This document shows positions 1-26,500 of a stretch of DNA of 64,000 nt, piece by piece. This stretch comes from Styela clava. Its lineage: Eukaryota. The first letter of the stretch is position 1. Each line of letters starts with the position of its first letter. Location of the stretch: the NCBI RefSeq assembly GCF_964204865.1, contig NC_135251.1, positions 9,858,001 through 9,922,000 of the forward strand, in the 5' to 3' direction. The translations under genes and the position numbers were made by a program. The notes under the pieces were generated by a model. It was not told where the DNA came from. It searched no databases and saw only the letters and a program-made list of their open reading frames with translations.

Positions 1-582
1 TTATTGAAAGTTTTTATATTTCTATAAGTCAGCGCAGCTAGGTAACTTAAGTTAAGTAGGTCATAAACTTAACATTTAACAACACTTAAGTTGACCATTT
101 TGATGACGTCACACCTTGAATATTACTGGGTAAAAGCTTCATAATGCAACGAAAGTAATTATGACAAGTCGAAAACAAGTCGGCAGTATGAGTCGTTACA
201 ATGAAATTACCTATTAATTTTACGTTCTAGTCTGGTTTACAATTAACCATACCCAACCGTGCATGGTTGATTAAATGTCCAATTTTTCAAAACATAACAG
301 TATCTAGGATGGTATGGATCATTAAAAAATATACAATACATATTCAGTATCAGACATTGGCACTGTAGGTACTGATATATTCAAACGACTTAAAATTGCC
401 CTTTTAAAATTGTATGACCTATCAAAGACTCTTTTTAACACTCACCAAGTTTAGTTGAGTTAATTTAAAGGTCATGACTAATAAAACGCCACTGTGTATA
501 TCGAAGTTTTGATCGGCAATCTTTAATAGTTATGACTGCTTTAAACAGACAAGATAAGTGTCATGTCACATAATATTTTCAG

Positions 583-3474
583 AATACTGTCCCAACAATG
601 ACAATCCGTGTCAAAATGATGGAAGCTGTGAGAATACTCCAGGGACCGATCCTTACTTTCAATGTAATTGCAAGCCTGGATATTTTAACGTCACCTGTTC
701 TAGCGATGGTGAGTAACACAACTTGTAGTTTTAAAATTATTTTTGTATTTGATTGAATATTACTTTACACACTAAAGTACGACTTACAGAAAACTAAATT
801 CGCATTTTCGCAACTCTTGGCGTTCATACATTTTCTGTTTGTTTGAATATATACGTAAATTTTTGTGAAAACTGAGTTGAAGTTGACAATTTAATTTTGT
901 ATTTCAGAATACTGTTCAAACAATCCAAATCCTTGTCAAAACAGTGGGAGCTGTGAAAATACACCAAAACATGATCCATATTTTAGATGCAACTGCGAGT
1001 CGGGATTTTACGACAATATATGTTCTAGCGATCGTAAGTATTGTAAAACGGAAGTGAATAAAATAAATATAACCTATAATTAATAATCATTATAGATATG
1101 ATTGCATGCCGGCCTTTCATGACAATAACGGGTTATAGCAATCGTTAGTGACAAACTGCATTTTGAAATCAAATAAAATTATATTCTTTTATAACATACA
1201 GTAAGTACATAATAGACAATTTGTTACACGCAATGATTTTAGATGTAATTCTCTGTGCCTACATTCGATTCCCTTCTTATCATATGCCGTGTTTGCCTTA
1301 ATCGGTATAGTAATTAAATACTACAAAAATATAACAGAGGGTATACTCTACATGCCACCATAATTATGTATTATACATTTTAAGAGACATTGAATGCAAC
1401 CCAAGTCAAAGGAACGTATAATATTGTATAATGAAATATTTTTCCTATTCCCGTGGAAAGCGTCACATGCAAAATATTGTCCAAACTGCACATATTATAG
1501 AAAAACACAAGCAAGTGTCTTTCTGTTGCATTATTAATATTTAGAATAATACAGTGATTTTGAACCTGAGCACGATCAAAACGTTTTTGGAGGTTTGGGG
1601 GTGTTCAAGGGTGTCGACGAAGATCCACATTATCAAGTCTTTCAGTTACCCAGCATATTGTTTTTTGCTATGAAAACTTTGATTCGATTTTGATCACATT
1701 TTATTGAAACATGACAACCAGGAATAGCCCTGATCGGATGACTATGTGCAGTCAATATTTCTCTCGTCCTAATTCATTTTGTTGTAACCAGTTGATCACT
1801 AAGGGGTTTGGCGGTTAATATAATTTGGGAACTCTTAAGATATAACTCCAAAAACTCACCACCGTTTTTTAATTATAATGAGTAAAGACGCATTTGCATT
1901 GTTAATAAGTTCTAGTTGCGCCACTAGTTTTTTGTAATCAAAACGTTGGGGTTAGAAGGAAGCCTGCAGAATAACTTAGGGGTTCGGCAGGTTCGTAAAG
2001 ATTAAAACCACTGGACTAATTTTCTGCTTGTTTTTTTTTAAATTCATCATTTAGTTTATAAGATTTATATTCTGATTCTACAATTCTCTATAGTGCTTCC
2101 GCGATAGGTGGGTAAGGTGAACTGAAGTATAAATTATTTATTTTATTACCAAATGTGATTGGATGTCGGTCTGCTACGGCAATACCGATTTCTGTCAAAC
2201 GTTGGTAACAGACTACATTTTGAATTGAAATTGATACACCCGAATAACTCAGAATACAAACATAACTGCAATGCATAAAAATGAATCTTAGTGAAACTAT
2301 GTTGTTATGCCTATTTTTTTTATTATTAAAATCTACTCAAAGTGGATATTTTCGTTAGCCTACCTCATAAAATTCCTTCACTGCAAAAAGTTATTATTTA
2401 CAAATTTACATCTTGTTAGTTATATGAGATGAATATCTTAGCGGTTGAGAATGTGTGAAGTTATAAAATCGGAATGATTGCACGAATAAGGTTAATGTTA
2501 TGTCGCATAACAATTTCAGAATATTGCCCCAATAATGGGAATCCGTGTCAAAATGGAGGAAGCTGTGTAAATATGCCAGAAAAAGATCCATATTATAAAT
2601 GTACTTGCATACCTGGATATTTCAACTATACCTGTTCTAGCGATGGTGAGCAACAAAATGCGTTTATATGAATTAATTTTAGTTTAATAAAGATTGCTTT
2701 GAAAACTGAGACAAAGGTATTAGCATTTAAACTCCTAGCGTTAATTATTTCCAGTCTGTCTGGATGATATATCGTTAAACTCATTTACACTCAATGTAGG
2801 ACCACAACATATTGTTCTGCTATAAATAGTGACAGGTCTTTCTTATCCATTATTATATAAATTAAAAGAATATTTCTTCATCTACAGCCAACAATTCCAA
2901 AATTAAAACTTTATTTTTATCTATATTACAATTTGCCAACGTCGAGAATATTTAATCTATATCTTTCACGATGAGAGAATACAAATCATTCCGGTTTGTT
3001 CCTTTCGATTGATATTACCTGAATATCGATTGATGACAGCTAAATAATATAACTTTTCGAGCCTTTTAATAACATTAAAATTGTCTGTTGTCAAGGTTAT
3101 TGATTCTAAGAAAAAGTTTCAAACCTCTTGCCCATCACATCCTTCTAATATGTAACTTTGTTCGATTTAAAAGTTGAAAACAACCCCAAATCGATTTTAC
3201 TTGAATGGTGGTATAATTGGTGGGTTTAGATTTGTTTAGAGGTTTATTGTGTGTCAATTCATACCCTGATCTACATAAATTACTTATTTCGCTTATAATC
3301 GCACAAATTGAATAGGTAATGCACCCACAAAGAGATCTTACTTTTTAGACTATTGCGAGCACAATGCTAATCCGTGTCTAAATGGAGGAAGGTGTATATC
3401 TACTCATGGTGTTCATCCTTATTTTGAATGCGACTGTGCGGAAGGATATTTTGGTGATTTTTGCTCCGACGACC
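583..3474 (+). repeat. EGF exon array of gene 1 (four symmetric phase-1 exons)
   Basis: YCPNNDNPCQNDGSC..., YCSNNPNPCQNSGSC..., YCPNNGNPCQNGGSC..., YCEHNANPCLNGGRC...; each exon bounded by ag/gt with EGF Cys spacing. Confidence 0.9.
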
Positions 3475-6400
3475 GTAAGTATTGTTCTAGTAATCTAGTT
3501 CAGTGTGTTAAGGAACTTGATTCTCATACGAATACTTGCAATAAATGTTACTGTTTTCATAAATAGAACCAATTAATAAGTGAAGAAAATTTTAGGGCAT
3601 TCACTGTTTTAAAAAAAGACATCGCCTTTATACCATGTGACAAACAAGGGCAAACAAAATACTCCTACATATCTTGCTAAATAAGTATTTCACATCAAAT
3701 TTCGGTATAAATATTTCAGAATTTGAAACACCAAAAATTATCAGTGCCTGTGGAGAGCCTTGCACAGACGATGGGAAAATTAATGTCACTTGGAAGCCGC
3801 ATACTGCAATTAAACACTTGTAAGTCGCACGAACTTGTATTTGGTTGAAACTGTCGTTGATGTCTAAAATAAACAAAACATTATATTTCTTATTCAATCC
3901 TCATACATTATATATTCAATTTTACAAAGTGGTACTGGTAAGTTTCATTCATCCAAATTCCAGAATACAACACAATTTTGTTTATACTTTCGAAACTTTA
4001 TCTTCGTTTCAACATATACAAAACCAACTGAGTTTGTATCCTTACATATTTAACTACTGCAGGATGTCTCAAAAATGAGTAAACACTTTTAATTTTGATT
4101 TGCTTTTCAGCTACTCATCATCATAGACCGTTCATTTTTTCAGAAAACATAGTATGGATAAGTAGTAAAATTTAGGTATTGTTTGCATTTTCCATGACAA
4201 AGAGGTAAACCCAAAAAATGAGGTGCAATATTGCTGTTTGGCACGAAGCATATATCCAGTAAGGCAAACTCAGCGCCTATTTGGAATTAATTCGGCTCAA
4301 AATGTTTTTCCTCAGAGCATCCGCACCTTGGTCTTCCTGATCTTTATGCATCAACTACATATCCAGTTTTCATAAATTTACGATGAATTGCATAAAATGT
4401 TCCTCGCGTAGAAGCCGAATTAATTCCAAAATCCCGTTAAAGAGGCGCTGAGTTTACCTTACTGATTTATATGCTCCTTGCCAAACAGCAAATTTTCACC
4501 GCATTTCTTGGTTAATCTTTTTCTCATTCTGGGGGTTGAGTAAAATTCCATAAATACTTAAATTTTACTACTTATCCATACTTTGTTGTCTGAAGAAATG
4601 AACCTTCTATGATGAGTACCTGAAAAGCAAATCCAAATTAAAATTGTATACTTACTTTTGAGACACCCTGTAAGTTGGACTAGTCATACAAAGATGCTTA
4701 ATTTATTACAGATATCAAATAACACTCTTGAATTCATTCGAAGAATGGCATAATTCTGGTGAAATTGCTCCAAGTGATATTCATGTGCAAAATTTGATCA
4801 TCGAAAATTTGTATCCAGATTCACAATACGATATTAAGGTATGAAATACAGTAGAATGCTAACAAAGTTCCATTGCTGATTACTTTGAATATATATCTTT
4901 TTAACTGACATAAAAAACATATACAGAAGAACAAGTATTTATTTGTTTTTTCAGATAACTGCTTGCCCGACAAACTGTATCGCAGAACTAAGCGATAACG
5001 CAACCGCCACCACAGGAATTGGTTTACCTGGAAAGATACTCACAGCAACAGTTTCACAAAATTACGAAACTAATTATTGTGAAGTTACTTGGACTTGGCC
5101 TGAAACCATATCAGAGGAAGATGTTGAAATGTTCCAGGTTAGCATTAGTTATTATTGATTTATGTTAAAGATAATTATGAATAGGATTTTACATTTTGAC
5201 GTCACTTTATCGAAAAAATGAGAAATAAATTACATACAAGAAATTTTTGTGCAAAATGTTTAAAATTTCTTATATATCAATCATATTTACATTCTATTTA
5301 TATAATTCCATATTACGTCCGATACTTGATGAAATATAAATTTTATATTTTTTTTGGTAAAGGTGTAAGGCGAACAGATATTTTCATTTATAATAGATGA
5401 ATTATCAGGCAACATTTGTACGAAAACCGCCCAGTTCTGACATCACAACAATACATGGGGAAGTTTCAGTTAATCCGCCCAAATTAACATATAATCTGAA
5501 GACGGAGCCAAACCGCATTTACAACTTTGATGTCTCAGCTGTTTCATGTGCTGGATCTGGTCCTAAAACAATCGCAACAGGCGAATGCATTACTGATAGT
5601 GAAGGTACGAATGAAGAATTTTAATTCCCGTAATAATAAGTTTTACTATCGATTATATATTTTTAAATTAGTACTCATAATTTGAACTAAATACTTGTTT
5701 CAACTAATTTCAAGTATATACTCCCTTATCGGTGAAATTGGTATTTGTCTCAGCTCCCGATTATATTGAAGAGCCAAATATAATTGATGAATCGCCAGGT
5801 TCAACTAGGGATCTGGAAATAATTTTACCAAATGAAGATAACGGGCCTATAAGGTAGGTGAATTTCAATCTGCTAGATCTTCAAAAATATATATTGGTCT
5901 ACTTTGTTTCATTAGTTATATATTAATAACAGTAAAACAGCAACAGGTAAAATTGGTATAGTGAAGACATATAAACACACGATAAAAACGATTCACAGAA
6001 GGGAAAAAATAGAAGTTACATAATTTATTTATTCTACGGTTATGGTAATGAAATATTTAAAAAAAAATTCAGTTGCGTATTCGTCGTTGTCAAAAATGGG
6101 CCCATTGATAACAATGATTTATTCGATATTGTTAAACTACGAAAAGTGTCATCGGAAGCATTGACAGATGAAACTCCCAATGGGAAAGAATATTTGGCTG
6201 TCGCTATGAAACGGTTTGTCTTAGAATGTGGTAGAATTACAATACATATGCTTCTACATATTTTAAATTATGATTTCCATAATGTCATGATTTAGTCCTA
6301 ATATAATTCCTTTTTAAATTTAATTCTAGAATCAATGATCAATCATGCATGTGTCTAAATCCTTAACCATCATTTGGACACAAAGTGGACCTATGAGTAG

Positions 6401-7932
6401 TTTTGATATTATATTGTTGTTGTTGTTTCTCTTGTTGTTAGCATGTTTATTTTTCGTCTGGATGGAATAATCGCTTTTCCCTTTAGCTACTGGTTTAATC
6501 AACTTTAAAATTTTCCGGGGTTAAAAATTGTTTTTGTCTCAAAGGTTATTACTTGTAATTTTCCTAAATGTTTCTGTGAGATCTGATATTTCATCCAAAA
6601 TCTACTGTTTCATTTTTAACCATGGGAACACGTTTATGTGACATTCTCACGGCTGGTACTGGTAGTCTACTGTGTTCGATTGCATACTCGCATTACAGCG
6701 TTTTGTACCTCAGGTCCATGTATTATAGCACAGCTCTCTTGTTGTTATCCAGATCTGAATTTTCTGAAACATCCATAACTGTGAAACTTGGCGATGAAAT
6801 TACCAGTGGCTGTGATGTCACAGACAAGAGCGCAAAAAATAGCATTAATCATTACGACGCAAAGAACTGGCAGCTTGTAATTGGGAATAGCTACAGGTAA
6901 TGCTATATATCTCAATGAGCATTCTGATGGCCCATAGCCCTATCAAATAACAAATGCAGATGAAGCGTACTAAAGAATAACGACATGATTCTGCATAGAG
7001 AGATAAAAATAGTTCATTCAATTTCTATTTCAGTACTTACGTTGTAACAACAAGTCCAAATGAAGAAGAAACGGTATTGTTTCAACAAAGCTCTATAGAA
7101 GAATTTGAGAATGGAAGTTCCGATTCGGGAACCGGTATCATTGACTGAACCATCACAATAAAATTTTTATAAAACCCTCTTTTATTTAGTTATTTAATCA
7201 ACTAGTTGCTTTCATGCTAAATATAAAGAAATGTAACATCTATTTTATTTTTAACAGATATGGCATGGATAGCTGGTGTTGTGGTGGGTATAGTTGCTCT
7301 AGCTACTCTAGTGGTTGGTGCAATTTTTTACACGAAACGTCGCCAACAACCTGAAAATAGAGAATCGTCGCTGACAAGTTCAAAGAGTACCTCAAAGGAT
7401 CATACCGACCTTTACGAAACTACGGGGTATCAAACAGCTGGAAATCCTGATATATCATTAGTAAAAGATACTGATATAAGTATGATAAAAATAAGTTTTG
7501 TATATATTTGTATTAACTTTGTTAAAGCAGTATGAATAAAACAACATCCCGTTTTTATGTACTTTGTGGATTTGACTATGTGGAGTTCCAAGTGTCGAAC
7601 ATTTTAGTATTTAAGCAAAGCACTATTCCACTGTATTTGTGAAAATGAATAGAAAATATTTGTCACAGATCTTAGAAATTAATTCATCACTGAACTAAAA
7701 ATAATAACCAAAAACATTTTTTCCAACTATTGCGATAGTGTAAAAGCAAACATACCCACAAAAATTTGATTTATATTTATACGCAGTTTTATGAATTCAA
7801 AATTATATTAGTTTATATATAACACATGAAAATTCATATAATTTCACAATACTTTTAAGGTAAACGCTAACAACTAAATTCATATTCATAGATCAGCAAC
7901 ATATATATTCTACAATACCTGGAGTTGGATAG
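583..7932 (+). CDS. Gene 1 (5'-partial): EGF x4 - FN3 x2 - RPTP-type juxtamembrane domain - TM - short tyrosine-motif tail; phosphatase-less paralog of gene 3
   Basis: Phase-consistent GT-AG exons: 583-708, 908-1033, 2520-2645, 3349-3474 (EGF, each 126 nt, 6 Cys); 3720-3819, 4712-4838, 4955-5137, 5397-5604 (FN3, e.g. NLYPDSQYDIK, EPNRIYNFDVSA); 5754-5853, 6073-6213, 6753-6896, 7034-7134 (NEDNGPISCVFVVV); 7258-7479 (TM WIAGVVVGIVALATLVVGAIFY then KRR); 7892-7932 (QQHIYSTIPGVG, TAG). Exon sizes match gene 2 exactly from FN3 through the TM exon. Confidence 0.88.
4060..4670. mobile_element. Palindromic MITE, Tc1/mariner-like ends
   Basis: Left end caggatgtctcaaaa, right end ttttgagacaccctg followed by ta. 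Long imperfect inverted arms (gtatggataagtagtaaaatttag vs taaattttactacttatccatac; actcagcgcct vs aggcgctgagt). Absent from the paralogous gene 2 intron 25679-25940. Confidence 0.8.
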
Positions 7933-10900
7933 GAAAGAGTTGTTTTGCAGAATCAGGATTTGGAGAATGCTTGAAGTTCTTCTGATATTTTTAATTTAGG
8001 GCCAAAACTCATATCAAACTATTACATATTTTTCGAAGTTCATTTAAACAATCTTGGTGTTAACATAAATTTGTTTGAGCAGCCAATTTTAAAATTTAGG
8101 GAAATTTTAGAAAATTAAGCAACAAAAATATTGTTAAAATGGGATTCAATTTCGAATTATAAATTCATAAAACATATTTTGGCTAAAGAACGTTGAATTT
8201 TGTTTCTTGGTTGGCATTGATTTGTGCAATGATATTTTTTCTAGTTCTTCTCATTCGCCTTATAAATTATGCACAATTACAACAAAATTCGTGGTTTTTA
8301 AAGAAGATGGTATGATTAATAAATACAATAGCCTTTGATAATTGGATATATTTTTTTGTTCAATATAGAAAAAAAGATTTTATTAACGCCCACTGATTCA
8401 AATCAATTTATGTTTTTATGTTTTTTCAATATTATAATTTCCATCCAAGTTTCTATTTTTCTAGTGAACAAAATAAAGTAACTATGCAACGGATACTTTA
8501 TTATACACTGTTTTTAAACGAAAACAGTCCAGCAATTTAAATTTCAAACATTTCTGGTTTTGCCATTCTGTTCTATAGTTGAGTTTGACGAATTGTTACA
8601 AAAAATGCCTAGAATATGCAATAAACGCCTTAATGTTATGTTGTGTTAAAAATTCGATATCGTGGTGATGCACATTCGTTAGGCTAAAGTCAAGTTCAAA
8701 AAGTATTATTTGAAATCCTATGAGAACTCTATAGAAGTGAATGAAATTCATTACAAAGTTATAATAAAAGACCCTCGTTATAGAAAGTCCAACTGCGCGA
8801 CTGTAGGCGCCGGTATGTATCGAATATTTAATATAGTGGATTACAAGTGGAATAAGTTGTGATTAATTGTAGTCTTCGTTATATAGCATTTCATTACATA
8901 AACAGGTAATTCAAACGCTGAAAGGATTTTATAAAGTCCTAATGTGAAACAATATGACAAGCAGTCAATTGATAGACTGCTAATTTCATTTTAGGATCTC
9001 CAGATTGTGCATAGGTAAACGGTAGGTTAATCGGTCATCGCGATCGTAGTTCTGCAATCTCTCGTGACACATCCTTACATTTTAATATATATTCATTTTC
9101 CATTAGGTTTTAGTAGGTTGTCATTCATGGAGATCAGTAACATCCATAATTAAAGAACTAAATACGTCCAGAAATAGCATCAGCGCTCATACTAACATTT
9201 TAAAGTGACTCGAAGCATCAAAAAGCTCATTTAAACTTGTAAAACATAGACTTCTACCAAGACAAAAGAATATTCATAGTAAGCCGGAAATACGAAACAA
9301 TTTGTTGACCAACTAAAGAGTTCACTCCGGCTATCATTTGGAAATCCCAACAAGATGTTAAACGCAATTAGGAGATTCCAATATACATATCGTATTTGTT
9401 GAAAAATTGGTACGGTATATTATTGTACAGCGCAGTACCAAGAAGGATCTTTAATCCAATAGTGGGCTCCCTTCATTTTTGCAAAAAACTGACTGCATAA
9501 TAATTGAAACGAACCAAATAATATCTTTTTATATATCCCAAACTCACTTCAACGACTCTAAGATAGTCCCAATTGAGCAAATCCTAATTTACCAAAAAAT
9601 GCGTTGTAATAAAAATATTATTGAGTTGCCAAATTTTTTTGTCCTTGCAAATATAATATAAACGCTTTAATCGGTCAGTGAAATAATGAAGCTCTTTAAA
9701 ACTGAAACTTTCATGCAATATGATTTTTATTATTACTATAATATTTATACTTTAATTTTTTGTTAAAAGGTTTGCAAACCATTTTTATAATTTATAAAAT
9801 TTTCAAATAGTATTTTGAATAACAGTACAAATTCATTTTTAGTATTATAGGCAGAATTTTCTATTTTATGGTCATTTTGAGTTCACATGCATAACAATAT
9901 CACGTTAAAACTAATTTTTCGAAGTAAAAAAATTTTTTTTTCTTAGTGGCCTACTTCTTTCCTATTACTGTAAGAGTGATGATAACACTTTCTATTTTTA
10001 TTTGGGAATGATTTCGCATTTTTGGGAATTACAAATACATTGAACTCTGTCATATTTACATTTATACCTACAACACAGACTGGTGCATAAATCAACTTAT
10101 GTATTCATTCTCAACATATTGTTCCAAAATACCTTGTACTTAACTGTGTAATTTTTCATTCTCTGATGTACCTGATGGTATACAACTGAAAGTCAAAAGT
10201 TAAATATATACTAGAGTAACTAGATCGTATTATTGTGGTGGACATTTATGCTATGATCAACATGAGATAATAATAAGGCCTCTCTTATGATTGTATTTAA
10301 ACAATTGTCAGTCATCTAAATACATACATGCGCACGATGGTGAAGAAGGACTTGAGGATTATTCATAAATATCCTATAATACTATAATTCATCGACAAAA
10401 AAGAGAATTTTAGTAGCATTTAGTAGGGTTTCGTAGAAATTTACTAAAATCTTATTGGGAGTTTTAGCACGATTTAGGTATTTTATTCATTCAAGGTTTT
10501 TATATTTTTTCATACTTTAGATATGATATTGTTTTGCATTTCTAAAGTAAGTAGGTATATATATATATATTGATCGAATGAGTTAATTTGGTATTACTAT
10601 AACAAACAAAAAATTTCAATTTATAAAATGTCACGAACAACAAATTGCGATTTAGTGTTCACCAATGAGTTTTGTATTGCTAACGATAGAGATATACACG
10701 CCATGAATTTACACAGAAAACCTTGAGCAAATAAATATTATTTACCGATCGAAGTGTTTCACTTAGCAATAAAATCGCGGAACCTTTCATTCGCTATTGT
10801 ATCAGACAGTATGAGTCCAGTATAAACGTTGAACATCGCCAGTAACGTTAGACTGTTGTATATTGAAAGATCAGTATTTCAAATTTCTGGAGATTTAAGG

Positions 10901-11519: not shown

Positions 11520-14500
11520 ATGCACATTGGTGTAAATTTGAACATGAGAAAGATAGCTTGGACAATTATCGTTGTATTTGTGTCAATATTGAAAACTGTG
11601 AGGCCTCAAGGTTTGTATCGTAGTATATTTTTACCTTAACCTCATGAAAGCCTGGTATCAGATTCGTCTAGTCTATGGAATTAAGAATTTTTACTACATT
11701 GCTAGAAAAAACATTCGAGCTTGTTTCAGTTAGAGTTGACAACAATTGTAACAACTAAAAAGGGGGGGGGGGGGGGGTCCAAGTAATGTAATAAACTATT
11801 TCAATTAGAATGTATGCAATCAACTAAAAATTCTTCCTTCTTCCTTATATTGACGTTTGACAATGAGACAGATTTAAAGATAGGTGTTATGCCAGAGAGT
11901 TTAGCGTGCCCAGATCATCGATAATTGGAAAAATTATAAATTTAATTTTGAGATTTGAATACTGTTTAGTTAGAGAATGTTGTGAATGTAGAGCACGAAA
12001 GTGAGGAGAAAAATAAAAAAAACTTTAGAATATTTTCATTGAAATATGTTAAATGATTTTGCTTAATATGAATAAATACCAACATTAGTAGAAAATACAA
12101 ATAATTCTGCAGTTGAACAAAAGCAAAAGGTCGTTTCACTTAGAAATATCATTTGATAACAAACAATTCTTTGGAGCTGGTGGCTGAGAAAGAAACTTTT
12201 CAAATCAGAGTTTTCAGAACTGATATTTCTGTATTTAATTCATGTATATATATACGACAATCATTTGCTAATGATGAATTCATTACAAATTTTAAGATAA
12301 ATATCCGTACATTACCGACATAAATTTTATAAATTCAATTCAATTAATTATTGTTGGGACCAATCACTCGCGATAATATAGATATGTGTACAACACGATA
12401 ACGATTGTTTGGACATTTTATGCACGTTTCAAATTTCATATATTGATAAAGTCTCTCCCATATTACTTTTATTTATTTTCAGATGAAACCACACTTTATG
12501 ATGGATATCTGTTCGAAAGATTCGACACACAAATGTTATCAAGTGACGCAGAAAAGCAATGCACGGTCAGAGGAGCGTGGCTGTTTGAACCCAAAACCGA
12601 TGAAATGTTCAACGAATTAACAAATAGTTTCATGTGAGCAATAAATCATTGTTATTGATAATGGGCTTATTTGTTTTTGCAACTGATTTAGGAAAGAAAA
12701 TCACAATAAATGCACCATTACACAGTTGATCTTTTTTCTAACACGTAGCAGTCTTCAATATATCATTCCCAAATGAGATGTCTCATTTTATAGTTTGATT
12801 TATTTATGACTGCTATTGTGATTGGAATGTAATGAACTAAAAGCTTGGTACGATGGAATGACAAATGAAACTATTCACCAACCATTATTTGAGCTACTAT
12901 ATGAACTCCGGTAATTTCAATAGAGCGAAATAAGAATTAATGTTATTCTGAATCGATAAATCAATATTCGGAACAATAAAATATCAGAGAATTATTCCAG
13001 AATTAATATTATGACTTTCACTATTTATATTTAGAGTTTTATCGTGTTTATGAGACAGATAATCGTTATATATAATAGTAAACTATGTGTAAAAGTAAAC
13101 GTTGTTCAAGAAATTCACAACCACATTGAAATGCTTATGGAAAAATATTTTAAATATTTTAATCAGACCGGCCGCAAATGATAAGTATTACTTCATGGGT
13201 CTCAGGAAGCTTGGCGGTGATTGGAGATGGAGCGATTACAGTGAGCCGACAACTACTCATTGGTGAGCTCGTTTAAATTAGTGCGAAGTATATTTTAATA
13301 TAAACACTTGATTTGAACGATTCATTGTTAAAATATCGGTAAATTTGTTGTTAATGAAATATTTGCTGGGTTGATTAACTCTTCAAGCCCCAAGGTCAAA
13401 TTCGAAAAAACCCACCTATACCTGCAATAATCCCCTAAATATGCTATGTTTTCAATTCGAACTCAAACGTCAACTACTGACCCTATAAACACGCATTCGG
13501 TAGCGTCTGAAAGAGGTAAACGAGTCCTATATTGCACTCCCTTTCATTTTTACCACATTCCAACCGACTCGCCGAATATGTAGGTCAAACTAATCGATGT
13601 TTTCACTCTTAGTAAATATTGGCGAAAATTGATCAAAATCGAGTGACCTTGAAAACGAAATACTCACAAAAAAACTATAAACGCCACGACCACCAAAGTT
13701 GGAGGCCAGAAACTACAAGCTATTGCGAATCTAGGAAAATTATCCCTTCCTGTCTAACCCATAAATTACTATTCATAAAGAGCATATGAAAATACACAAA
13801 AAATGAATTTTTTTTGTGGTCTCGGATGAAAAACAACAACTCAAACGAAAGAAAAGAACCAAACAGTGATAACAAATGATGAAAGAAATGAATTAAACTG
13901 TGATGATATATATATACAATGCATAAAATATAACAAGGATGATTTTAGAAAAAAGTGATATCCATCAAAACAGTGTATACAAAAAGACTAAAAAAAACAG
14001 TGTGGGAATAATCGCATCGAAAAATGTTTATATACAATGAGTGAAGAATAAATGAAAAAGAATGAATAAAAACACTGATACCCTGGCAATATAACATAAA
14101 AATCATTCCTCCCAATAATTTTGCTGAGTGTGATATTTTCTGAAACATGGCGTGACGCATAGTGGCACTTCGCACAAGAAGGTGGGGGCTCCAAGTGTAC
14201 TGGCTGAGTGTGTCTCGGGGTCACAACAGGCTCCGGTTGTGGGGGAGAGGGTAGTACGTATTCTTCTCGACTGCTGCGACGTCCTCGTGACCATCTTCTT
14301 TTTACTGGTCTGCCTCTCCTTGAACGAGTCGTGCTTGTGGACGCAGACGAGGTACTTGGCATATCTGAACTGCCAGAACTGGAGAATTGCCTTATAAATA
14401 TTGGAGTTGTTGATTCATCGGAAGAGGACGAAATGTCTTCCAACTCCCACTCATCTCCAGAGCTGTAAAGGAACAATTCTAATCAATCATACTGCACATC

Positions 14501-17500
14501 TGCTGACTTATATTTGAATATAGATATCAAGAACAGATTTATATGATATATAGGGCCAATATCTTCATTATAAGTGACTGCTTGCAATTTTAATCAGTCG
14601 ACTTTCCTCTCCCCCCAGGATAAAAAAGTAAATCCTATTCTTATTCTAATATTGTAATTTACAGTGTCAACAGCAGAATGAATATAAACTAAGCCTTCTG
14701 TCAAGGCTGTTGAAAAAAAAATAACAGGAAGTATATCAAAGTCACTTACCTCTCACCAAAATCACTTTCCACTTCGATTCCAGTAGATAATTCCATATTA
14801 AATTTCAAAAGACAATGCCGCTACGCTAACAGTTATCAAGCCAACATTCATAAAAGAGGTCGTCTTTGTTTACAAGCAGTATTTACAAGCAAAACGGCGT
14901 GTTCCCAGCGCCTAAATCGACTATATCACAAACAAATCACCATAGAAAATCGTCATTTTTCAAAAACATTGGGAGCACTAACATATCACGTGATGGCTTG
15001 ATGCCTTTTTCTCGTTATCATAGCGTTGTAGACGAGACGGTCTTTGTTTACAAGCTGTATTTACAAGCAAAACGGCGTGTTCCCAGCGCCTAAATCGACT
15101 ATATCACGAACAAATCACCATAGAAAATCGTCATTTTTCAAAAACTTTGGGAGCACTAAACAATCGCATGATGGCCTGATGCCTTTTTCTCGTTATCATG
15201 CGTTGTAGAGACGTAACGTCAGAATCGATTGATACCAAAACCAGGTCACACAGAAGCGTTGAACCGAAACAGTGAACCCGGAAAGCGGAAGGGATATATC
15301 GCCGGCTGGTTCGTTACCACGGCCACTAGGAGGCGATAATCCGCTGGCCGGGGCTTGAAGAGTTAAAAAAACGACTATACCCCATTAAAACAAAACATTG
15401 TTAAATAAAATAAAAAAACAAAAAGCAACATCACAAAAATCTCCTTGAATTTTAAATACACGTGTACAATATTCGGGATTTTAGAATGCGTGAGGATATT
15501 GAAAGTATACAAACGCATAGAATATATTTGTCCAGTTTAATAGTTGTATTTAACATTAGTGTAAGGCTTTATAAGTAATTTATACTCAAATATAATTAAA
15601 CAGGTCAAAACCTGGAGAATCAAATTTAACATTATAGTATCAGGCTTTATAAGTATAAATTTAAACTCAATTATTATTATACAGGTTAAATTCAAAAGAA
15701 CCAAACGAGTATGGTCAAGAATGTGCATGTGTTCTGAACAATAAATGGGTTAGCGTGGTCTGTTCCACGACTCCAAGAAGATACGTTTGTCAATCTCGTG
15801 AGATTATAATTTGTACATTCTGTTACTTACTCGACTCTGGAGTAGGGAATGCATTGCCTTGCAATCAAATGAATCAATGATAGTTAGTGCACGCAATGTT
15901 TTCTATGTGTTTCATAAATTTACAGCAAGATAGTAGGAGTATTCCAGAAAATGTAAAAACATAACGAGACCGTATAACTTCTCTGTATAGAGGAAGTGTG
16001 TGGAAACATTTCAAAATTGTAAACACAAAAGAACTGCTGAACAACTGATAGACACTTGGGTACTAGCCAGCATTTTGCAATGCATGGTAGCACAATGTTT
16101 AAACGTGATTATTTAACACTAACGGCAATTGAACCGATTTATATGTTCAAACAGTCGTAATTTCTCCACTTATCAAATTATTTTTTACATTTTATATTTT
16201 CTTGTGTATATTTAGTTCAACCTCCATCCTCAACAATAATACTTTACGGAAATCTTCTGGAAAGATTCGCCGAAGAGGTTCAAAATTATGCAACTGCTAA
16301 TGATAGATGCGCAATGAGAGGTGCTCAGTTGGTTGAGATAAAGGATAAAACTATGGACGATAAAATAATTGAATGGATTGAGTGAGTTATTAGTATAAAA
16401 TCTAATTTCTGTCATGAATGATATGTCAGATATCATTGCGAGTCGTAACAAATCATACCCATTACTGCAGGTCTGATGCAAGATCTTACCTGATGGGAAT
16501 ACAATATTCGACATCAAATGATGTGTGGGAATACAACAGCGACAACACAGCAATCACCTATGATAATTGGTATGTACTCGAAGCTTGGTTTATACATTCA
16601 TATATCGAAATAAGGTATGATTTTCATAAACAATTCGTATTTGCGCTGCAAATAGGCAATATCTTGACAATCTAAACAAAATGTTAAGAATACTTTTTTG
16701 CGTCAATATAGTGTTGATCATTTGTACAAGACCATTTTATTTATGAGCTTATCGACCTTCCATGATAATAAAATCTATTTAAATGGTAGGTCGTACTTCA
16801 TTTGTAAATTAGGTTTTACGTTTGAAAATGGCTCATTGCCTGTTTTGGTGTGAATTTGAATATGCCGAAAAATAATACCATTTCAAACTTTGATAACGGG
16901 CATATTGTATTTCATTGTACGTCGCGAAGTTACTGTGAAATTGATATCAAATTTGTTGTCTGTAGAGCAAGTATCAAGAGTGCAGCAACAAAATTGAAAA
17001 CATATGAACAATATAATCCGTGGAATGCGACTAAGATTTACAGTCATGATTTTTTAAAAACTTCATGACATATGAAAATCTGATACATACTTCAGAATGG
17101 TGAACTCTGATAAGGAAATATGGTTTAATTATAACCGGGGCATTTATATATGTTTATTTCATGTAAGGCGCTGATAACAGTCTCGAGATATTATTATTAA
17201 ATAAATAAAAATTCATTGACAAATATTATTTTAAACAATACCGATAACACGCATAAAATATAAAATTGTATGATCCAACGGAAAATACATTATTCAGTCA
17301 CATTTCCAATTAAATATACCTGGGACATTTCTCAGGTTTATCTTCTAGTCTGTAACACAATATGAATATTAGCTCTAAGTAATATATAATGAGAAAACAT
17401 CTGGCATTTTCGCTTGTCGGAAAGATTCGGGGTGCTAAGTGGGCTTCAGCCAAGATAATGTTTCCTTATTTTAAAATAAATATTCTACGTTTGTTATTAA

Positions 17501-20500
17501 TTTAAAGATGAGAGAATATTATTGATTCGGACATAAATTTTGACTTAAAATCATATTATTTCTTTTTTGTACGACGCCTATTCATACTTTCACTTAAATC
17601 CTTATGACTATTAACTAAACTATAAAACTTAATCTTCATTCAATGACTCGTATGTATTTGTTTACATTGAAGGAAAACAGGTGAAGGTCATGATACCAAC
17701 GAAGACTGTGCTTGTATACTAAGTGACGGATGGATCGATGATGTTTGTAGTAGTGGTACATTCAAATATATCTGTCAGTCATGTAAGTGAGTGATATAGA
17801 AATAAGACAAAAGTTCCTGTCAACACATTTTGAACTGGGTAAAACACAAAATATTTCAACGATTTGTGATATTGTAAAAACAATTCAACTGCAGGAATTC
17901 AAGTTTTTTGTTGTACGTTGCGCATGCGTCATATTACTTGCAGTTGCCACTGGATTTGATTTGCTACCACTTAAAAATAAAATATATAAATTCGTTATTT
18001 AGTTTCGTATATCAAAATGTGGACGTTATACATCTAAACTAATAAGTATTAACCAAACTTGTACTTGAATTAAAAAAGTATACTGACAAATCTTAACCTA
18101 TGTTCGAAGATAGGAAGCCGTTCTCGAAAATCGGCATTTGGTAAATTGTATAAACATTTCATTCAAAAATATCTTGTGTGAGATATAAAGAGTTTATCAT
18201 CAGTTTATTTTTTGATATAATTATAAAATCGTATCCTGATTCAAATGCTGCTGTTTCCATCATTATCGATACCGATCTAATCTATTATATTCTTACATCA
18301 AAGATCCGAGTGAAGCAACTACTCACAATGGAGATCTTCTTGAAAAATATAACAATAAAATAGGAAATGCAGCAGCAAGGAGTAGATGCTCATTGTGGAA
18401 CGGGACTCTTGTTGATGCAGATGATGCGACGTATAACAGTGCTGTACAGAATTTGATCGGGTATATTTGTTTTACTCAGTGTGGTTCTCAGTATTATGAC
18501 ATTGGTTGTGCATGTATTACTATAAGTTTTAAAGACGAAATACGACTAATCAGGCCAATCATTAATCTATCGTAACGTTACAATCTGCTATTGGGTTTAT
18601 GACATTGCAAATAGGCATCTGTATATTAGTACTATTTGTAATAAGTTGCGAATTTCAAACTGATTCAGACTTCATGCATGCATTTGTAAATCATTCTCAA
18701 TATTGTTATCACAGAAATGGAGTCTTTTATCATATCGGTTTGAAATATTCTAATGGGGCATATCGATGGACAGATGGATCAGCAACAACTTACTTTGATT
18801 GGTAAGATTTTATTCAGCCGTTTTGGCATTTGACATCAGTAGTCGATGTTTAACATTTACGTTCAGAACTCATTATCATCCTCGGTTCAAATACCTATGT
18901 TGTGTAATCATTACATAAATCGCAATACCATAGAATAAGTACTCAAAAAAATTATACTGAACTCTGAAACTTGTAGACTTTGAATAAAATTTCACGGAAT
19001 GTTCGTTTAATCGCCTTTCAATTACCACTCGTTTTTGATTGAATGTAAATGATATTTATGCGGAATTTAATTTTGAAAGTAATTACGACGTCCGAACAAT
19101 ACTTATTTATTGTTATGATTAAAAGCAAACTAAGTATTCTGGGCTTTTTTAATCTAACACAAATTATATTTCATTTTATATAAAGTAAAAATTTAACTAA
19201 AAAGGAGTTTAGGCAACTATTTAAAAAATTTATGAACTATAATAAGATCAAATTTATAGGGGCACTGGCGAAGGATCAGATGATGGCAAAGATTGTGTTA
19301 GGACCAATCAAAACGAATGGCGTGACACATCGTGTGGGGGTCCAATAGGATATATATGTCAATCTACAGGTAATATAATTTTAGTAAGAAGCGGTATTTT
19401 ATTTCTTTTATCATAACTAAAAAAATGTTTTTTAAACTTAAACGGCCTGCAATAGTATCCGAATTTTAACTTACATATACTTCATATGACAATTTAAAAA
19501 TTTCAAATCAGTATTTTTTTTATTTCAAATACCTGAGTTAAAACGACACTGAATTAAAATTCAACCACGGTTAACAAGATAATAAGAATCACAAAGCCGA
19601 AACTATTAGCCTTAGCGGTAAAATATAATAATATCAGTTTTTTGTTGGCATCTGCCGATAAGTAATAAAATGTTATCGCCTCATTCCGTATTTTTGGAAT
19701 TAAAAGACCCATAAAAAGTGGGAAATGAGTTTTCAAATTTTCTTTGATCTGTTTAGCTTATTGCACGCTCAACTCTGGCACTTGTCAAAATGAAGGAAGC
19801 TGTGTGTCTTATAGATGGTGTGAATGCGCCGATGGATTCTACGGCGATACCTGCTTAAGCAATGGTGAGTCCATACTCTATAGCGATTTATTGAATTGTC
19901 TACATCTTTCCAACATGATACAAGATACCAGTGTGAAAATATCTAAGGTCGACACTGGTATTGTTATGAAACTTCATTATTAAGCACTTAAAATGAAAAA
20001 TCTGTTTGCAACTAAGAGACTTATTATGACATCATAATAATATTTTAATCAATGACAATAACATCATGGCGACAGTTCCAGTCCTACAAACCTATTAAAT
20101 ACATTCATTAAATTATGAATAATCCTAATTTTGATTAGAATAATTATCTCGCCGTTAAGTTTAACAAATATTATTTATAATTCTTTTAGTTCAAAAGCAA
20201 TATTTTAAAGTATATAATTAAAATTCTTTGTAGGATTCTTTGCAATTAAAGTCGCTTGGCGCCTAGGGTAAACCTCCGCCGGTAGTTGAGGTTCGCGTCG
20301 GTTCTGGGTCGTTATTTAACAGGTATTAGAGTAACAAGAAAATGCGCAATCCAATCGTGCGACTTTTTTTCTTTTTGAGATAGCTAGTTTTCACTCCACA
20401 TTAATACGTTCAATATTATACAATATTGTAGATCTGTAACGGTAGCAAACTGCAAAGGTTGTCTTCGGTATTATTGCGTGAATGGTAATATTCTGCTGAT

Positions 20501-23500
20501 GATTGAAACAAGTTCAAATATAATCCCAAGTGTAATCTTTTCCAGTTTATATAATATCCAGATGGAAGATGGCTTGATCAGATAGGTGTTTCTCGCCACG
20601 AAATGTATAGCAATCTCGAAATTTTGATTCTCAATTTGGTTGACGCGATAATCGCAACAAGTGGTTAGAAATTTTCCAACGTGAGACGATTTTTTCGCTG
20701 CTGCTATGGAGACGAAACACAAATCCGGTCTTTGAGTAAAACGCATATATCAAGGTGACATGATAACTCATGGGAAAAGTTCAAGCAGATCGGTCCATCC
20801 GTTGGACTCTGCAGTTGGACACGCATACAGAAAGGTGTACATGACGATAAGTGCATGGCTAAGACAATACTACTAAACGCCTCACCAATCCCTTAGGCAG
20901 TGCAGTTTGATACCTTATCAAACACATTATAGCCAACCATTTCAAATTGGTGTGAACAGTTCAGGTTATTATTATATCACATTATTATTTTAGAATATTG
21001 TCCGAACAATGTGAATCCGTGTCAAAATAGAGGAAGCTGTGAGAATTCACCAGAAATATTTCCATACTATGAATGTGCTTGTACGCCGGGATATTTCAAC
21101 GACATCTGTTCTAGTGATGGTGAGTAACAAAATACGTAGTTTTGTTTTGTCTTTGGTTAAATATTAGGCCTACTTTATACACCCAAATACGATTAAAAAA
21201 AAACTGAATTGTCTTTTCGAGAACTCCTAACCATTAATACTTGTTATTGTTTGAATAGATATATAGACTTAGGTATGAATATTTCAAGGGTTCGTTGCTT
21301 TTTGTATACGATTTAGTAACAGACATCTGTAAACAGATGATGATAGATGTTGTTGAAAATTCTCTTTTGACAACTAATGGTGTGTTGAACACCTCGATGC
21401 ATTTATAATTTGACTCCAAAGTAGCTTTCAAAATATTTGTAACTGAAACTAATCGTGAATGACAAATTACACAATAACCTTAAGAACATTGATTTTATGT
21501 AGTAAATCTTTGAATAATGAAAAAGCAGAAACGTTTTCGAAACGTATTTTTCTTATATCTATTGAAATTCTGTAAAACAGAGCTATCCGTGTTATTAGTA
21601 TTGTTTAATCTTAATTCACCCTTAATCCCAACTAACATGATATGCAAATAATATGACTATCAAATCAGGTCCGATAAAATTTGTTTCGAATAATATAATC
21701 TCTCTGCATCAGCAATAAGTGTGCTTATTATGCTTATCTATTTTACTCATTTAAAATAATTCTACAGATATTATTCTAATTTAGCGAGAAATACGTGTTG
21801 TTCATTCATCTGCAAATAATGAAGAGTGAAAAAAGTTTACTCAAGTTCTATTCTCAATGGGAGAAATATATATTCACAAATTTTAATTTATTCTCTGATT
21901 GATGTAAACCTCACTTGGTCATACATTTTTGCAACTATATGTCACTTAGCAAAGTTAGATTTTTTGTAGAAATCCCCCACTACTGAGGCAAAAATGGGAG
22001 ATTTGAGAAAAACTCCCTCACCATGTTTTTACGTACTGCAGATTGCAATCGCCACGTTTCAAGTATTTGAGCCTTTGAGTTAAGAAAAGCCGCCGCCATT
22101 AATGCAAATTGTGAGAGAAAAATACCTCAGCCACGTTTTAGGTAATTCCACGTTCGCAACCTTTAGCACGACCCAAACCAAGACAGTGAGTTATGATGTT
22201 AAAGTATCTTACAAGATAATTTTACTTAGAATCGTGCGCTAAAAAACATATCGTCACTTTAATAACCGCCGAATTGCGTGAGTCATTTTTGGCGATTTTG
22301 AGTTTTTTATAAAATAGGTATTTATGTAATGCTGCGCACCTGTCTGTTAACAAAGTTTTTATTTTAAGAATTCCAAAACCCATATGGAGATTTGGTATGA
22401 CAGGCACATTTGTGCAATTGTTTCGTCATAATCAATTATCATTGATACCGCTGTACTATTGTGACGTCACAAAGGCAAAATTACATCGGCGAAGTATTTT
22501 CGAGTTTTTGCATCTCGGATTCTAGCTTAGCGCGTATTACTTTAAATTTATACTACAGTATAGGAAGACGTGCACTTGTAATATTCACTGTCCGAGTCCA
22601 ATCCACCTTGGTTGGCTTTTATATTGGGTGCATTGCTGTTTTATTCTTTATATTTAATATTAGTCCTATTTCGGTGGATGTGCAGAACGTGTTATATTGA
22701 TGAAATATATATTTTTAAACATAAAAAATAATGTAATTGGAACTGATTAGCTATTTTGGGGATTAGACTCTGTAGACACTGAGAATTACATTTGTTTTTG
22801 GAATGTTTAGTTTTCAGGACTGGTGCATATAGTAAAGTTGCAAAATTGCGTATGTCCCCAAGCCATAGACACATTTCTGCCTAAGTCACAGTGCGCCATT
22901 ATGACGCCACTTAACTGCGTTATACAAATTAACTTAAATCCGGCTACGATCAAAAAATGGAACCATGGCAAATTATTGACTCTCAATGGCTTAACAATAT
23001 CATTAGGAAGTTTTTTATACGTTTTTCTCAAAGCTGCTAAAAATGACTTACGCAATTCGGTTATTAGCGCGACGATATACTATTCGAATCTAAATCTGAT
23101 AAAATCGAAAAATCTCTACAAATGCTTGTCATGATATTCAGAAATATTGTCAAATTTATTGGGACTGCAACAATGTTCTTGACATATGAACAAAAGAGCT
23201 TTTATTTGAACGAGTCTATTGATTTTCATTATTTACAGCATTTTATGTAGAGACCAGTGTAAAGGTGACAATTTCATTTTGGTATTTCAGAATACTGTCC
23301 TAACAATCCAAACCCTTGTCAAAACGGAATCTGTGAGAATACACCAAAACAGCCTCCGTATTATGAATGTGACTGCATGCCGGGTTTCTTCGGATATAAC
23401 TGCTTTAGCGATCGTGAGTATCGTTAACTTGATTCGAGATGATTTCGCAATTCTTTTATGTTATGTTACTTAAGGTGGGGCACGCCAATATAGTGAATAC

Positions 23501-26500
23501 AATAATATGATTTACATCAAAGATGTCATGTCGGCTACTACGACAATACCGGATTCTGGCAATCAACGGTTACAAACTATACATTTTGAATAGAAATTAA
23601 TTTACTGTAAAAACTTACAATACGAACAGGAATACAATTTATAACGTTTAATATTATTTAAACTATGTTGGTATGTTTTTTCAATTCAAATCAATGCAGA
23701 AAAGGTATTTTCGTTTCTTCATAAAATTCTTTCACAAAACAAAGGTATTTTAATGCCATAAATTGACATTTTGTAAATTCACTAAATCAGTCATTTAGTC
23801 AAATGAGATATTAAGGCAATACCCTATTGTTACTAAATCATACATTCGGCGTGAACAAGGCGTGAAGTAATCATTACCAATGAGTTACGATCAGGCATGC
23901 CCAACCAAAACAATTTTTGTCATTTTTAGCGATGACGCATTTTTAGCGATGACGCGTCAAGCTTCGAGACGGATCATTTGGGCTTTGGGTATTAGGAAGG
24001 CGAATTAGGTTTTCGTCAATCTCATTTCAGTGTTTAAAGTAATACTTATGTTTCAACAGAATAAAATTTTATTTGATTTAAATATGCAGTCACTAACGAT
24101 TTCTTTAACCTCGAAATATTCATACCTAAGCGTGGAAGCACATTTATAGTAGGGAAATGTCCCTGGTGAATTCTCACAGCTTCCTCCATGTTGACACGGA
24201 TTCACATTGTTCGGACAGTATTCTGAAATTCAAAGGTGACATATCATTAACCATGTCCATGCAATCATGCCGATTTTATAACTCTACATATTCTCAACCG
24301 CTAAGATTAATTAAATAATGTTCTTTTGTCCACATAAAATTATAATTGGTATTATTAAATCTTATATTTCCACAACTAATGATATTTTTGAACACACCTG
24401 AGTCGATTATTCATTTGACTCAATAGTGGCAGGAACTGCAATTAAAATAAACAATACCTGAAGAGAATTGATTTTATGTAGTAAACCTCGAATAGAAGGA
24501 AACAGTAGAAACGATATTAAACCTGTTATATTTCTTGAAATTATGCAATTTAAATTATTCGTGTTATTAGTATTGTCGAATTACAATTAAAACTTAATCC
24601 CAACTAACGGAAGAAGCAAATAATAAGACTATCACATCAGGTCCGATTTAATTTATTTCTGGAAATGTATTTTTATCGTATGGGCAATAAACATGTTTTT
24701 TTTTTATAATTAAGTATTTCATTAATGTCAAAGCTTGTTAAAAATGATATTCTAATTTATTAAAAAATATGTGTTGCGCTTTTTCTCCACTTTCCCTGCA
24801 GTTTAGCATTCATCCTCAAAATGAATACATATTATAACCGTTGATGCTCATCGGCAAAATGGCGATACCACGAATTCGTACTTACAAATAGTTACAGATC
24901 TTTCTGAGCCCTCAAAATTCAAAATTAGGAAATATTTTTTCATATATAGTGAACAATGTAGAATGACAAATTCACTTTCATTTATATAATTTGCTAATAT
25001 CGAGAATTTCAATCTAAATTTTCACTTTATGGAAAGTTTTGTTTTGCTTCAATGCTGGGCCATACATGATTGAATGGTTGTCTAAATTCATGTTTACGAT
25101 TTAGTTATTGTTCTTATTGTCGACGTGCAAACCTAATTCTCATAATAAACGTTCCTTTGTCGCACACATGAAGTCAAGTTATGAGAAAAGAATATTTGAG
25201 ACATTGAATTGTGTTTTCAATAAGACATATATATCTTCTATATCATGTGAAAACAAGAGAAGAAAAAAAATACTTTTAAAATTATTAACGGTTTCATCTG
25301 CCATCATGAAATATATGACATCCTATTGAATAACTAGAATTAAATATAAGTAAGGTATTTATGTATGTTTAAATTATTGTTTAGAATATTGCGATTACTC
25401 ACAAAATCCGTGTTTAAATGGTGGAACTTGTCAATCGATTCCTTTGGTCGATCCATATTATGAATGTATTTGTGTTCAAGGATACAGCGGAAATATATGT
25501 GAAACAGGTATGGCAAATATTCTTAACGTATACTGATCAATGACTATTTTACATAAGGTGATATTTTGAATATTTTAGAATATGGAACACCAGAAATCAT
25601 CAGTGCCTGGGGAGAGCCATGTACAGACAATGGAAAAATTAATGTTACCTGGAAGCCGCATACTGCAATTAGACACAAGTAAGTTGAAAACGATTTTATT
25701 TGATTTTAATGGAGCCTAAACAACCACATTTTTGAAAGCGTGGAGTATCTTGCATCATATTGAAAATACTGTCCAATAATGCCCAGAATAAACCGAAAAG
25801 TTACACGCATGCATTTAGTTTATGGTTTATTTTGCAGCAATATATATATATATATATTTATATATTAGAAAATTATTGCTTTTTTATTCATCACTTATAT
25901 TTCTATAGACTAACTATTGAAATATTTCATTTACTTACAGTTATCAAATCACTCTCTTGAATTCATCAGAAGCATATAATGATTATGGTGAAACTTTTCC
26001 AACTGATAATCATGTGCAAACGTTAATCATCGAAGATTTGTATCCCGATTCGCAATACGATATTATGGTACGTAATACAGTAATATGTTGAGAAAGTTTT
26101 ATTATTGCTTACGTCCTTTTATACGAAATAGATATAGAAATATGAAGATATAGAAAAACTGGTTCCAGCAGAATGAAATTTGATTCATTTGTTTTTTTGA
26201 GATAACTGCTTGCCCGACTGACTGTATCGCAGAACTGAGCGATAACGCAAACGCCACGACAGGAATTGGTTTACCTGGGAAAATAGTCACAGCAACAGTT
26301 TCACAAAATTACGAAACTAATTATTGTGAAGTTTCTTGGACTTGGCCTGAATCCATATCACAGAAAGATGTTGAATTGTTTCAGGTTATCATTAGTTATT
26401 ATTGGTTGATATTAAAGATACTTATGAACGGTATTTTACATTTTTACGTTTCTTATTCGAAAAAATGAGCAATAAATTACATACAATGAATTATTGTCCA

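Follow-up and report, generated by a model that had tools for sequence, protein, structure and literature searches.

A stop codon at the YENV tyrosine of a lectin-EGF receptor gene of Styela clava and a frameshift upstream of it

When a stop codon replaces a tyrosine in the cytoplasmic tail of one member of a duplicated receptor family, does it produce a receptor with altered signalling, or does it fall in a gene that no longer makes a receptor at all? The question is raised by gene 1, a member of a tandem array of lectin-EGF receptor genes in the tunicate Styela clava, whose 3′ part opens the 64,000-nt stretch of DNA analysed here (the window; NC_135251.1, positions 9,858,001 to 9,922,000, assembly GCF_964204865.1). 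Adding 9858000 to a window coordinate gives the position on contig C2 of assembly G000, and negative coordinates lie upstream of the window. Gene 1 occupies 1..7974 of the forward strand as the end of a 32-exon model that starts at C2:9841980 (-16020), 16 kb upstream of the window, and encodes a signal peptide, four C-type lectin modules, nine EGF modules, a fibronectin type III (FN3) region, a transmembrane (TM) segment and a tail, the module counts being taken from the exon pattern. The reading that we prefer, and hold with modest confidence, is that gene 1 is a likely null allele by way of a one-base deletion in exon 10, that the tail stop is likely without effect, and that the locus reflects birth-and-death turnover.

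Two lesions in one receptor gene

The last exon of gene 1 (exon 32, 7892..7974, forward strand) is preceded by AG and reads HIYSTIPGVG and then TAG (7930..7932, forward strand), after which the old frame continues as ERVVLQNQDLENA to a TGA at 7972-7974. In gene 2, further downstream in the window, the tyrosine codon of the YENV motif is TAT (28877..28879, forward strand), followed by ENVVLPNKDSDDA and a TGA at 28919-28921, and the spacing of 42 nt equals that of gene 1. An earlier reading made from the letters of the window (the sequence-only reading) had reported this pair of codons, with the ancestral TGA 42 nt on in both genes, and the sequence confirms it. The codon is also TAT in the full-length paralog B and its partial duplicate C, both upstream of the window; overall it is kept in five of seven tail copies and lost in two, gene 1 (TAG) and the decayed copy A (AAT). 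Six of 12 listed read runs were compared (X1, X2, X5, X6, X7 and X8), of which X1 and X2 come from a single sample, possibly the assembly's own source animal, with library types unrecorded. Checked against these reads, as the sequence-only reading had proposed, base 7932 holds: a 170-nt X1 contig (depth 9.46) matches 7902-8071 with no differences and no gaps, TAG included. It has 30 letters to the left of 7932, one below the 31-letter bridging rule for contigs, as would be expected where a contig begins at a branch between paralogs. Since X1 may be the source of the assembly, this contig excludes a base error in the assembly and is silent on the frequency of the allele.

The motif had been said to be removed by one base. 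The stop does remove the counterpart of VGYENV, the sole match in the gene 2 tail to the consensus of an ITIM (immunoreceptor tyrosine-based inhibitory motif), but it does not stand alone: at 7936..7938 (forward strand) gene 1 has AGA (Arg) for AAT (Asn) at the +2 residue of YENV, through two gene-1-private substitutions (7937-7938), and two further private bases lie 3′ of the stop, 7961 and 7965. Among the 12 one-step nonsense routes available in the last exon, two fall on the tyrosine codon and eight would remove YENV, and a nonsense change at exactly the tyrosine codon is unremarkable. A TAG with G as its next base leaks little read-through. We set read-through aside as a candidate, which would give at best a YERV product and is moot given the upstream frameshift.

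That frameshift lies outside the window. Exon 10 of gene 1 (C2:9848353-9848461, -9647 to -9539, forward strand, 9.6 kb upstream of the window) has 109 nt, compared with 110 nt in gene B and gene 2; one extra base is present at the exon start in all four other copies, and the deletion falls within a short A run. Contigs of 288 nt cross the deletion in X1 (depth 9.22) and X2 (23.6) with no differences and no gaps, and a B-type contig found beside the gene-1-type one has 11 differences and one gap. A spliced alignment of gene 1 masks the lesion by picking a donor four bases into intron 9 (the +4 donor), and a direct alignment reveals the missing base. The claim that the rest of the gene is intact fails here, because with the normal donor the frame ends at codon 424 of ~1,343, in exon 11 (C2:9849099), short of the TM segment and ~900 codons ahead of the tail stop; beyond the junction of exon 11 itself there are 20 more. 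The tail is thus likely never made from this allele. Under the usual rule of nonsense-mediated decay (NMD), a premature stop with exon junctions downstream is a target. A stop in the last exon would by itself be expected to escape NMD, as had been argued, but the upstream frameshift would turn the gene 1 transcript into a target, or else the transcript would yield a secreted lectin fragment; in either case this allele would give no surface receptor.

As a null allele would be, gene 1 is disabled ahead of its essential domains; exons 1-30 show no second lesion, and the gene lacks the many lesions of an old pseudogene. Of the two things that had been named as undoing the proposed tail switch, a sequencing error is rejected by the read contigs for both changes; pseudogene status, on the other hand, largely holds for this haplotype, because the frameshift is supported by reads and the frame closes at codon 424.

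The lost motif and the order of events

VGYENV in the tails of gene 2 (P0001), B and C meets the ITIM consensus I/L/V(/S)-x-Y-x-x-I/L/V, as given in excerpts of PMC12582321 (published sources are used here and below in excerpt). However, the hydrophobic -2 residue is not kept across the family: a distant paralog, which retains DLYET, HIYxTIP and YENV, reads PRYENV in both annotations (P0016 and P0025), Pro is also found at -2 in P0007 and P0031, and gene 3, a receptor tyrosine phosphatase in the window, has PLYENV and PIYENV. The ITIM label of the sequence-only reading is therefore weak beyond the consensus match, and the conserved feature, as the alignments would have it, is YENV and not the -2 residue. 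An Asp at -2 in relic Z was dropped as motif evidence, Z being broken (TM-exon stop and frameshift). We also rejected an activation motif (ITAM) or hemITAM, as YSTI and YENV are 4 and not 6-8 residues apart and no acidic triplet precedes YSTI. The pattern pYxNV (Asn at +2, Val at +3) occurs once each in B, C, gene 2 and the distant paralog and at two sites in gene 3, and is lost doubly in gene 1, by the stop and by the change from Asn to Arg. This is the preference of the Grb2 SH2 domain, for which pYENV of CD22 is a non-ITIM site (PMC5302901), further pairs of YENV and Grb2 have been described (PMC3694890), and YxN tails mark the R3 receptor tyrosine phosphatases (PMC5336234). The most probable partner of YENV in the Styela tails would be a Grb2-type SH2 domain, and the stop together with the Asn-to-Arg change would have removed such a phosphotyrosine site. 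Its loss was likely tolerated because the near-identical gene B keeps the site.

Gene 1 and gene B are 93-100% identical in exons 1-30, with 82 amino-acid differences over ~1,320 residues. The gene 1 tail is ~20% apart from all others in intron 31 and ~20% from B in the 3′ flank, with identity to B dropping from ~95% to ~80% at the end of exon 31, and judged by these distances it is an old lineage. In introns 1-29 the two genes differ at 715 of 18,360 sites and by 69 frame-breaking indels; exons 1-30 of gene 1 hold one lesion, where ~11 would be expected had the gene been dead since its split from B (P = 2e-4). The ratio of nonsynonymous to synonymous change (pN/pS) between gene 1 and B is 0.52 (p = 0.002), exons 1-9 giving 0.31 and exons 10-30 giving 0.74. 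With gene 2 as the reference for polarity, gene 1 has 12 nonsynonymous (N) and 9 synonymous (S) changes, and B has 21 N and 6 S. A dN/dS-type comparison, which had been suggested as a check that gene 1 is functional, thus speaks for past constraint, but on a gene that is frameshifted now. The scarcity of lesions and the constrained pN/pS suggest that the frameshift is likely recent and that gene 1 is not an old pseudogene. The age of the frameshift is at most ~27% of the gene 1 branch; within that time the 42-nt segment expects 0.22 substitutions, the probability of at least three being ~0.0015, and a nonsense change in the last exon has a chance of ~2%. The tail stop likely arose before the frameshift, and the stop and the Asn-to-Arg change would then date from a time when the ectodomain was still under purifying selection.

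Alternatives to a null allele

The alternative that survives best is that the tail stop is a selected switch, gene 1 being a decoy or non-inhibitory partner with an ectodomain ~94% like that of B but no YENV/ITIM-like site, that is still working on other haplotypes, the later frameshift being confined to the present one; we regard this as possible and rather doubtful. The likely priority of the stop over the frameshift speaks for it, as does an ectodomain shared with B on a different tail (intron 31 and 3′ flank ~20% apart), which is the pattern of paired receptors, and in Botryllus alleles and splice forms of FcoR exchange tail motifs (PMC12582321). In the last exon of gene 1, none of the 38 positions ahead of the stop carries a private change and 4 of the 39 behind it do (one-sided Fisher p = 0.06), but gene 2 shows 3 of 39 in the same segment. 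This tyrosine is independently gone from copy A (TAT>AAT), as it is from P0002, yet A is itself 5′-truncated and decayed, and two long branches would hit the tyrosine codon in ~4% of cases if neutral, the codon having been picked post hoc among several tail tyrosines. The reads compared show no haplotype that joins the stop to an intact exon 10.

The sequence-only reading had called loss of an ITIM by a tail stop an established route to non-inhibitory paralogs, and a precedent exists in KIR, where the switch took both an ITIM stop and a lysine in the TM segment (PMC2213150). The short-tailed activating KIR2DS and KIR3DS, as described there, resemble gene 1 in belonging to a tandem family with shared ectodomains, exchanged or divergent tails and a stop inside a tail tyrosine motif, but they gained a TM lysine for DAP12, whereas the TM segment of gene 1 has no K, R, D or E. 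KIR are built of immunoglobulin (Ig) domains and the Styela genes of lectin, EGF and FN3 modules; gene 1 is frameshifted upstream, and its paralogs are not known to have an inhibitory function. Gene 1 therefore shares a similar ectodomain with an activating paired member and lacks both a charged TM residue or ITAM and an intact gene, and a paired-receptor reading could survive, with a rather small probability, only for past or other haplotypes.

Haplotypes evidently differ at this locus. A second X1 contig (7895-8071, depth 10.6), whose rows are joined by equal depth and taken to be one contig, keeps the Tyr and Asn codons and reads C at 7945, while its T at 7954 gives a TAG eight codons on; it ends at 8071, like the contig of gene 1. 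These two bases occur in none of four paralogs compared (0/4) and match no assembled copy, and the contig may be the other haplotype's copy of the gene 1 tail, which would make the tyrosine stop heterozygous. A suggestion that it shares the gene-1-private bases 7961 and 7965 was dropped, as differences near contig ends (within ~30 letters) apparently go unlisted. From another annotation, P0006 combines a gene-1/B-type ectodomain with yet another tail.

The RNA-like runs X5, X6 and X8 (none on record as RNA) come from samples other than that of X1 and X2, and GT-AG joints of family members are found in X5 and X8. At the gene-1-private bases covered (7350 in X5 and X8; 7396 and 7932 in X5) no gene-1-type transcript was found, all of the counted depth having the paralog letter and the single counted X5 contig at 7932 being of the Tyr type; contig-end letters are uncounted and these samples may not carry the gene 1 haplotype, and we draw nothing from this absence. 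X6 gave one record, and X7 (Hi-C) four reads, none of them at 7932. Those four reads, at 6700-8900, come from 1,890 million letters, for which ~5-fold coverage would be expected (a filter, a library bias or absence of the haplotype). Also in X5, a GT-AG joint at 6892-7254 of a family transcript skips the equivalent of exon 30; its 101 nt are not divisible by 3, and the TM segment would be read out of frame.

It is also conceivable, if unlikely, that the tail of gene 1 was recombined in from a dead relic, in which case the stop and the Asn-to-Arg change would be pseudogene decay and no trimmed receptor would ever have worked. The drop in identity at the end of exon 31 points to a junction in one of the two genes, gene 1 or B, the array contains dead tail relics (A and Z), and the private coding changes of gene 1 before the tyrosine (6 N and 3 S) are not clearly purifying. 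Intron 31 of B and C, however, is close to that of gene 2 (2.6-7.5% apart), which suggests that B and C, and not gene 1, received a foreign tail. Exon 31 of gene 1 and its splice sites are intact, and ahead of the stop 9 of 257 nt are privately changed (exon 31 plus the initial 38 nt of exon 32), a lower rate than in the intron (34 of 396), a point weakened by relic A, which shows the same deficit.

We find it improbable that alternative splicing, through the +4 GT donor that follows exon 9 or through skipping of a lectin module, still yields a tail-trimmed receptor while NMD clears the out-of-frame form. The spliced alignment is indeed open to the tail stop by way of the +4 donor, which restores the frame, and exon phases permit in-frame skipping of exons 8-10, 10-11 or 10-12 in a gene whose exons 1-30 have no further lesion. 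But the +4 donor scores very low, 1.95 bits where the normal donor has 8.93 (only one of 50 real donors in the cluster is weaker still), and, being present in B as well, is not a compensating change in gene 1; no RNA-like contig covers exon 10 in the reads compared, with X5 and X6 lacking coverage there. Least credible by far is an error of sequencing or assembly at base 7932 or in exon 10, which could appeal to the short A run, the unrecorded library types of X1 and X2 and the 30 letters left of 7932, but is contradicted by exact-match read contigs carrying both changes, by the presence of the deletion in two runs and by the other gene-1-private changes among which the stop sits.

The preferred reading of gene 1 as a recent null allele has several points against it as well. 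The RNA-like runs represent animals not known to carry the haplotype, and NMD and loss of the protein are inferred; the in-frame escapes by the +4 donor or by exon skipping exist on paper; and X1 and X2, as one sample that may be the assembly source, give no allele frequency. VGYENV does match the ITIM consensus, and a single tyrosine can bind SH2 partners of either kind. As for the order of events, 32 ectodomain codon differences are unpolarised, gene conversion from B can erase older lesions (intron 7 is identical at 313/313 positions), the dating rests on intron indel rates, which may overstate coding rates, and the three clustered tail changes could be a single mutational event.

The array, its neighbours and known systems

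Within the window, exons 19-30 of gene 1 (583..7134, forward strand; EGF and FN3 region) are mutually in frame and 95-100% identical to those of gene B, and exon 31 (7258..7479, forward strand) encodes the uncharged TM segment and the proximal tail with DLYET and GYQT; Pfam assigns TM_ErbB1 to the gene 2 homolog P0001. Gene 2 (11544..28921, forward strand) has 24 exons, set by hand and verified for GT-AG and an open frame, and 1,014 open codons with a YENV tail. Pfam on P0004, the gene 2 model, finds the Lectin_C, EGF-type and fn3 families only. The matching proteins are named Styela clava, and P0001 is 96-100% identical to the 3′ exons of gene 2. Intron 3 of gene 2 carries a ~2-kb insertion (13377-15363) that gene 3 lacks; it includes a direct repeat of 172 nt (14862-15209) and minus-strand Cys-rich open reading frames that we take to recall a piggyBac C-terminus. 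Gene 3 (33641..58135, forward strand; start approximate) is the receptor tyrosine phosphatase; its ectodomain has lectin and EGF parts related to those of genes 1 and 2, together with Ig and FN3, and is followed by two protein tyrosine phosphatase (PTP) domains. Its modelled part (39122-58132) has no stop and no frameshift, and its two YENV sites lie near the membrane (PLYENV) and at the C-terminus (PIYENV). Beyond it, a 171-codon open frame at 61592-62104 (forward strand) recalls the zinc-binding region of a LINE reverse transcriptase and may be one.

Six last-exon copies were found by DNA search and seven TM exons by two protein searches, spurious aligner exons in gene 2, A and the distant copy being excluded from counts. 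The array order begins with the distant TM-tail copy (C2:9483000, minus strand), followed by relic Z (-74900), copy A (ending at -61541), gene B (-56339 to -32695; 32 exons and 1,343 open codons) and copy C (-31796 to -26150, C2:9826204-9831850; a 5′-truncated duplicate of exons 21-32, in frame). Among the seven TM-tail copies only B and gene 2 are full-length and open, and the other five are broken or partial. The distant paralog is phosphatase-less and combines an Ig-FN3 ectodomain as in gene 3 with a tail of the gene 1/2 type; in G000 it has a stop in the second Ig exon (C2:9486116, minus strand) where P0025 has Gly, possibly a second segregating null of the family. Inverted lectin and EGF exons of the same family lie upstream of relic Z (~C2:9759100-9771100, minus strand). 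In copy A the last exon (C2:9796377-9796459) has AAT for the tyrosine codon, as in P0002 from another annotation, and the first tail tyrosine is also lost in G000 (DLH) and kept in P0002. Gene B is not pristine, with Gly at codon 260 (~C2:9805440), at the end of the second lectin module, where gene 1 has Cys. Copy C, directly behind B, could act as an alternative 3′ module spliced from it. One of its introns holds an 85-nt last-exon piece (C2:9826738-9826822; IYSTI to stop, YENV included) that looks like a templated insertion; the insert is flanked by ~64-nt direct repeats, as seen by eye, and in gene 1 the corresponding intron holds a single repeat without the insert.

A protein search with 11 matches, three of them unread, identified no homolog of the tail outside S. 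clava; among the six newly read matches three were fungal or unnamed, with similarity mainly in the TM segment. Searches of the open-access literature found no published description of this Styela cluster. Clusters of immune receptors that evolve by birth and death hold null alleles, pseudogenes, partial duplicates and conversion tracts. The Styela array resembles them in its tandem copies, partial duplicates, conversion tracts and haplotype-specific lesions, and an immune role of the family is assumed here from its architecture. Closer to Styela among the tunicates, the FF/FcoR genes of Botryllus schlosseri are likewise clustered type I receptors with tyrosine motifs, and FcoR shows copy-number variation and tails altered by alleles and premature stops (PMC12582321). 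But FcoR, as described there, is an Ig-superfamily receptor paired with fester genes, whereas the Styela genes are of lectin-EGF-FN3 type, with no Ig family in P0004, and lie beside a receptor phosphatase. FcoR was not identified among the matches of the TM-tail search, which was no direct test of homology, and the array neighbours are paralogs and the receptor phosphatase, fester-family genes not having been searched for. The R3 phosphatases (PMC5336234) and Y4 of CD22 (PMC5302901) have the same YxN pattern, in CD22 as YENV, and gene 3 ends in IYENV. Gene 3, however, has two PTP domains where R3 has a single one, genes 1 and 2 lack a phosphatase domain, and binding in Styela is a prediction.

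As found, the locus represents ordinary turnover in a duplicated receptor cluster and carries a caution, as the disabling lesion lies outside the window in which the tail stop was noticed. It may also be, at rather long odds, that these genes are a phosphatase-less offshoot of a family of lectin-EGF receptor phosphatases and work as a paired system in which B signals by YENV, gene 1 and, independently, A have lost the tyrosine and are ligand-sharing decoys, a trimmed allele with intact exon 10 segregates and the sequenced haplotype is a later knockout. Should such a trimmed allele prove to work on other haplotypes, nature would have supplied a knockout of one tyrosine next to a near-identical partner, with which one could ask directly what YENV recruits and whether the logic of paired receptors has arisen again in a tunicate family built of lectin, EGF and FN3 modules rather than Ig domains.

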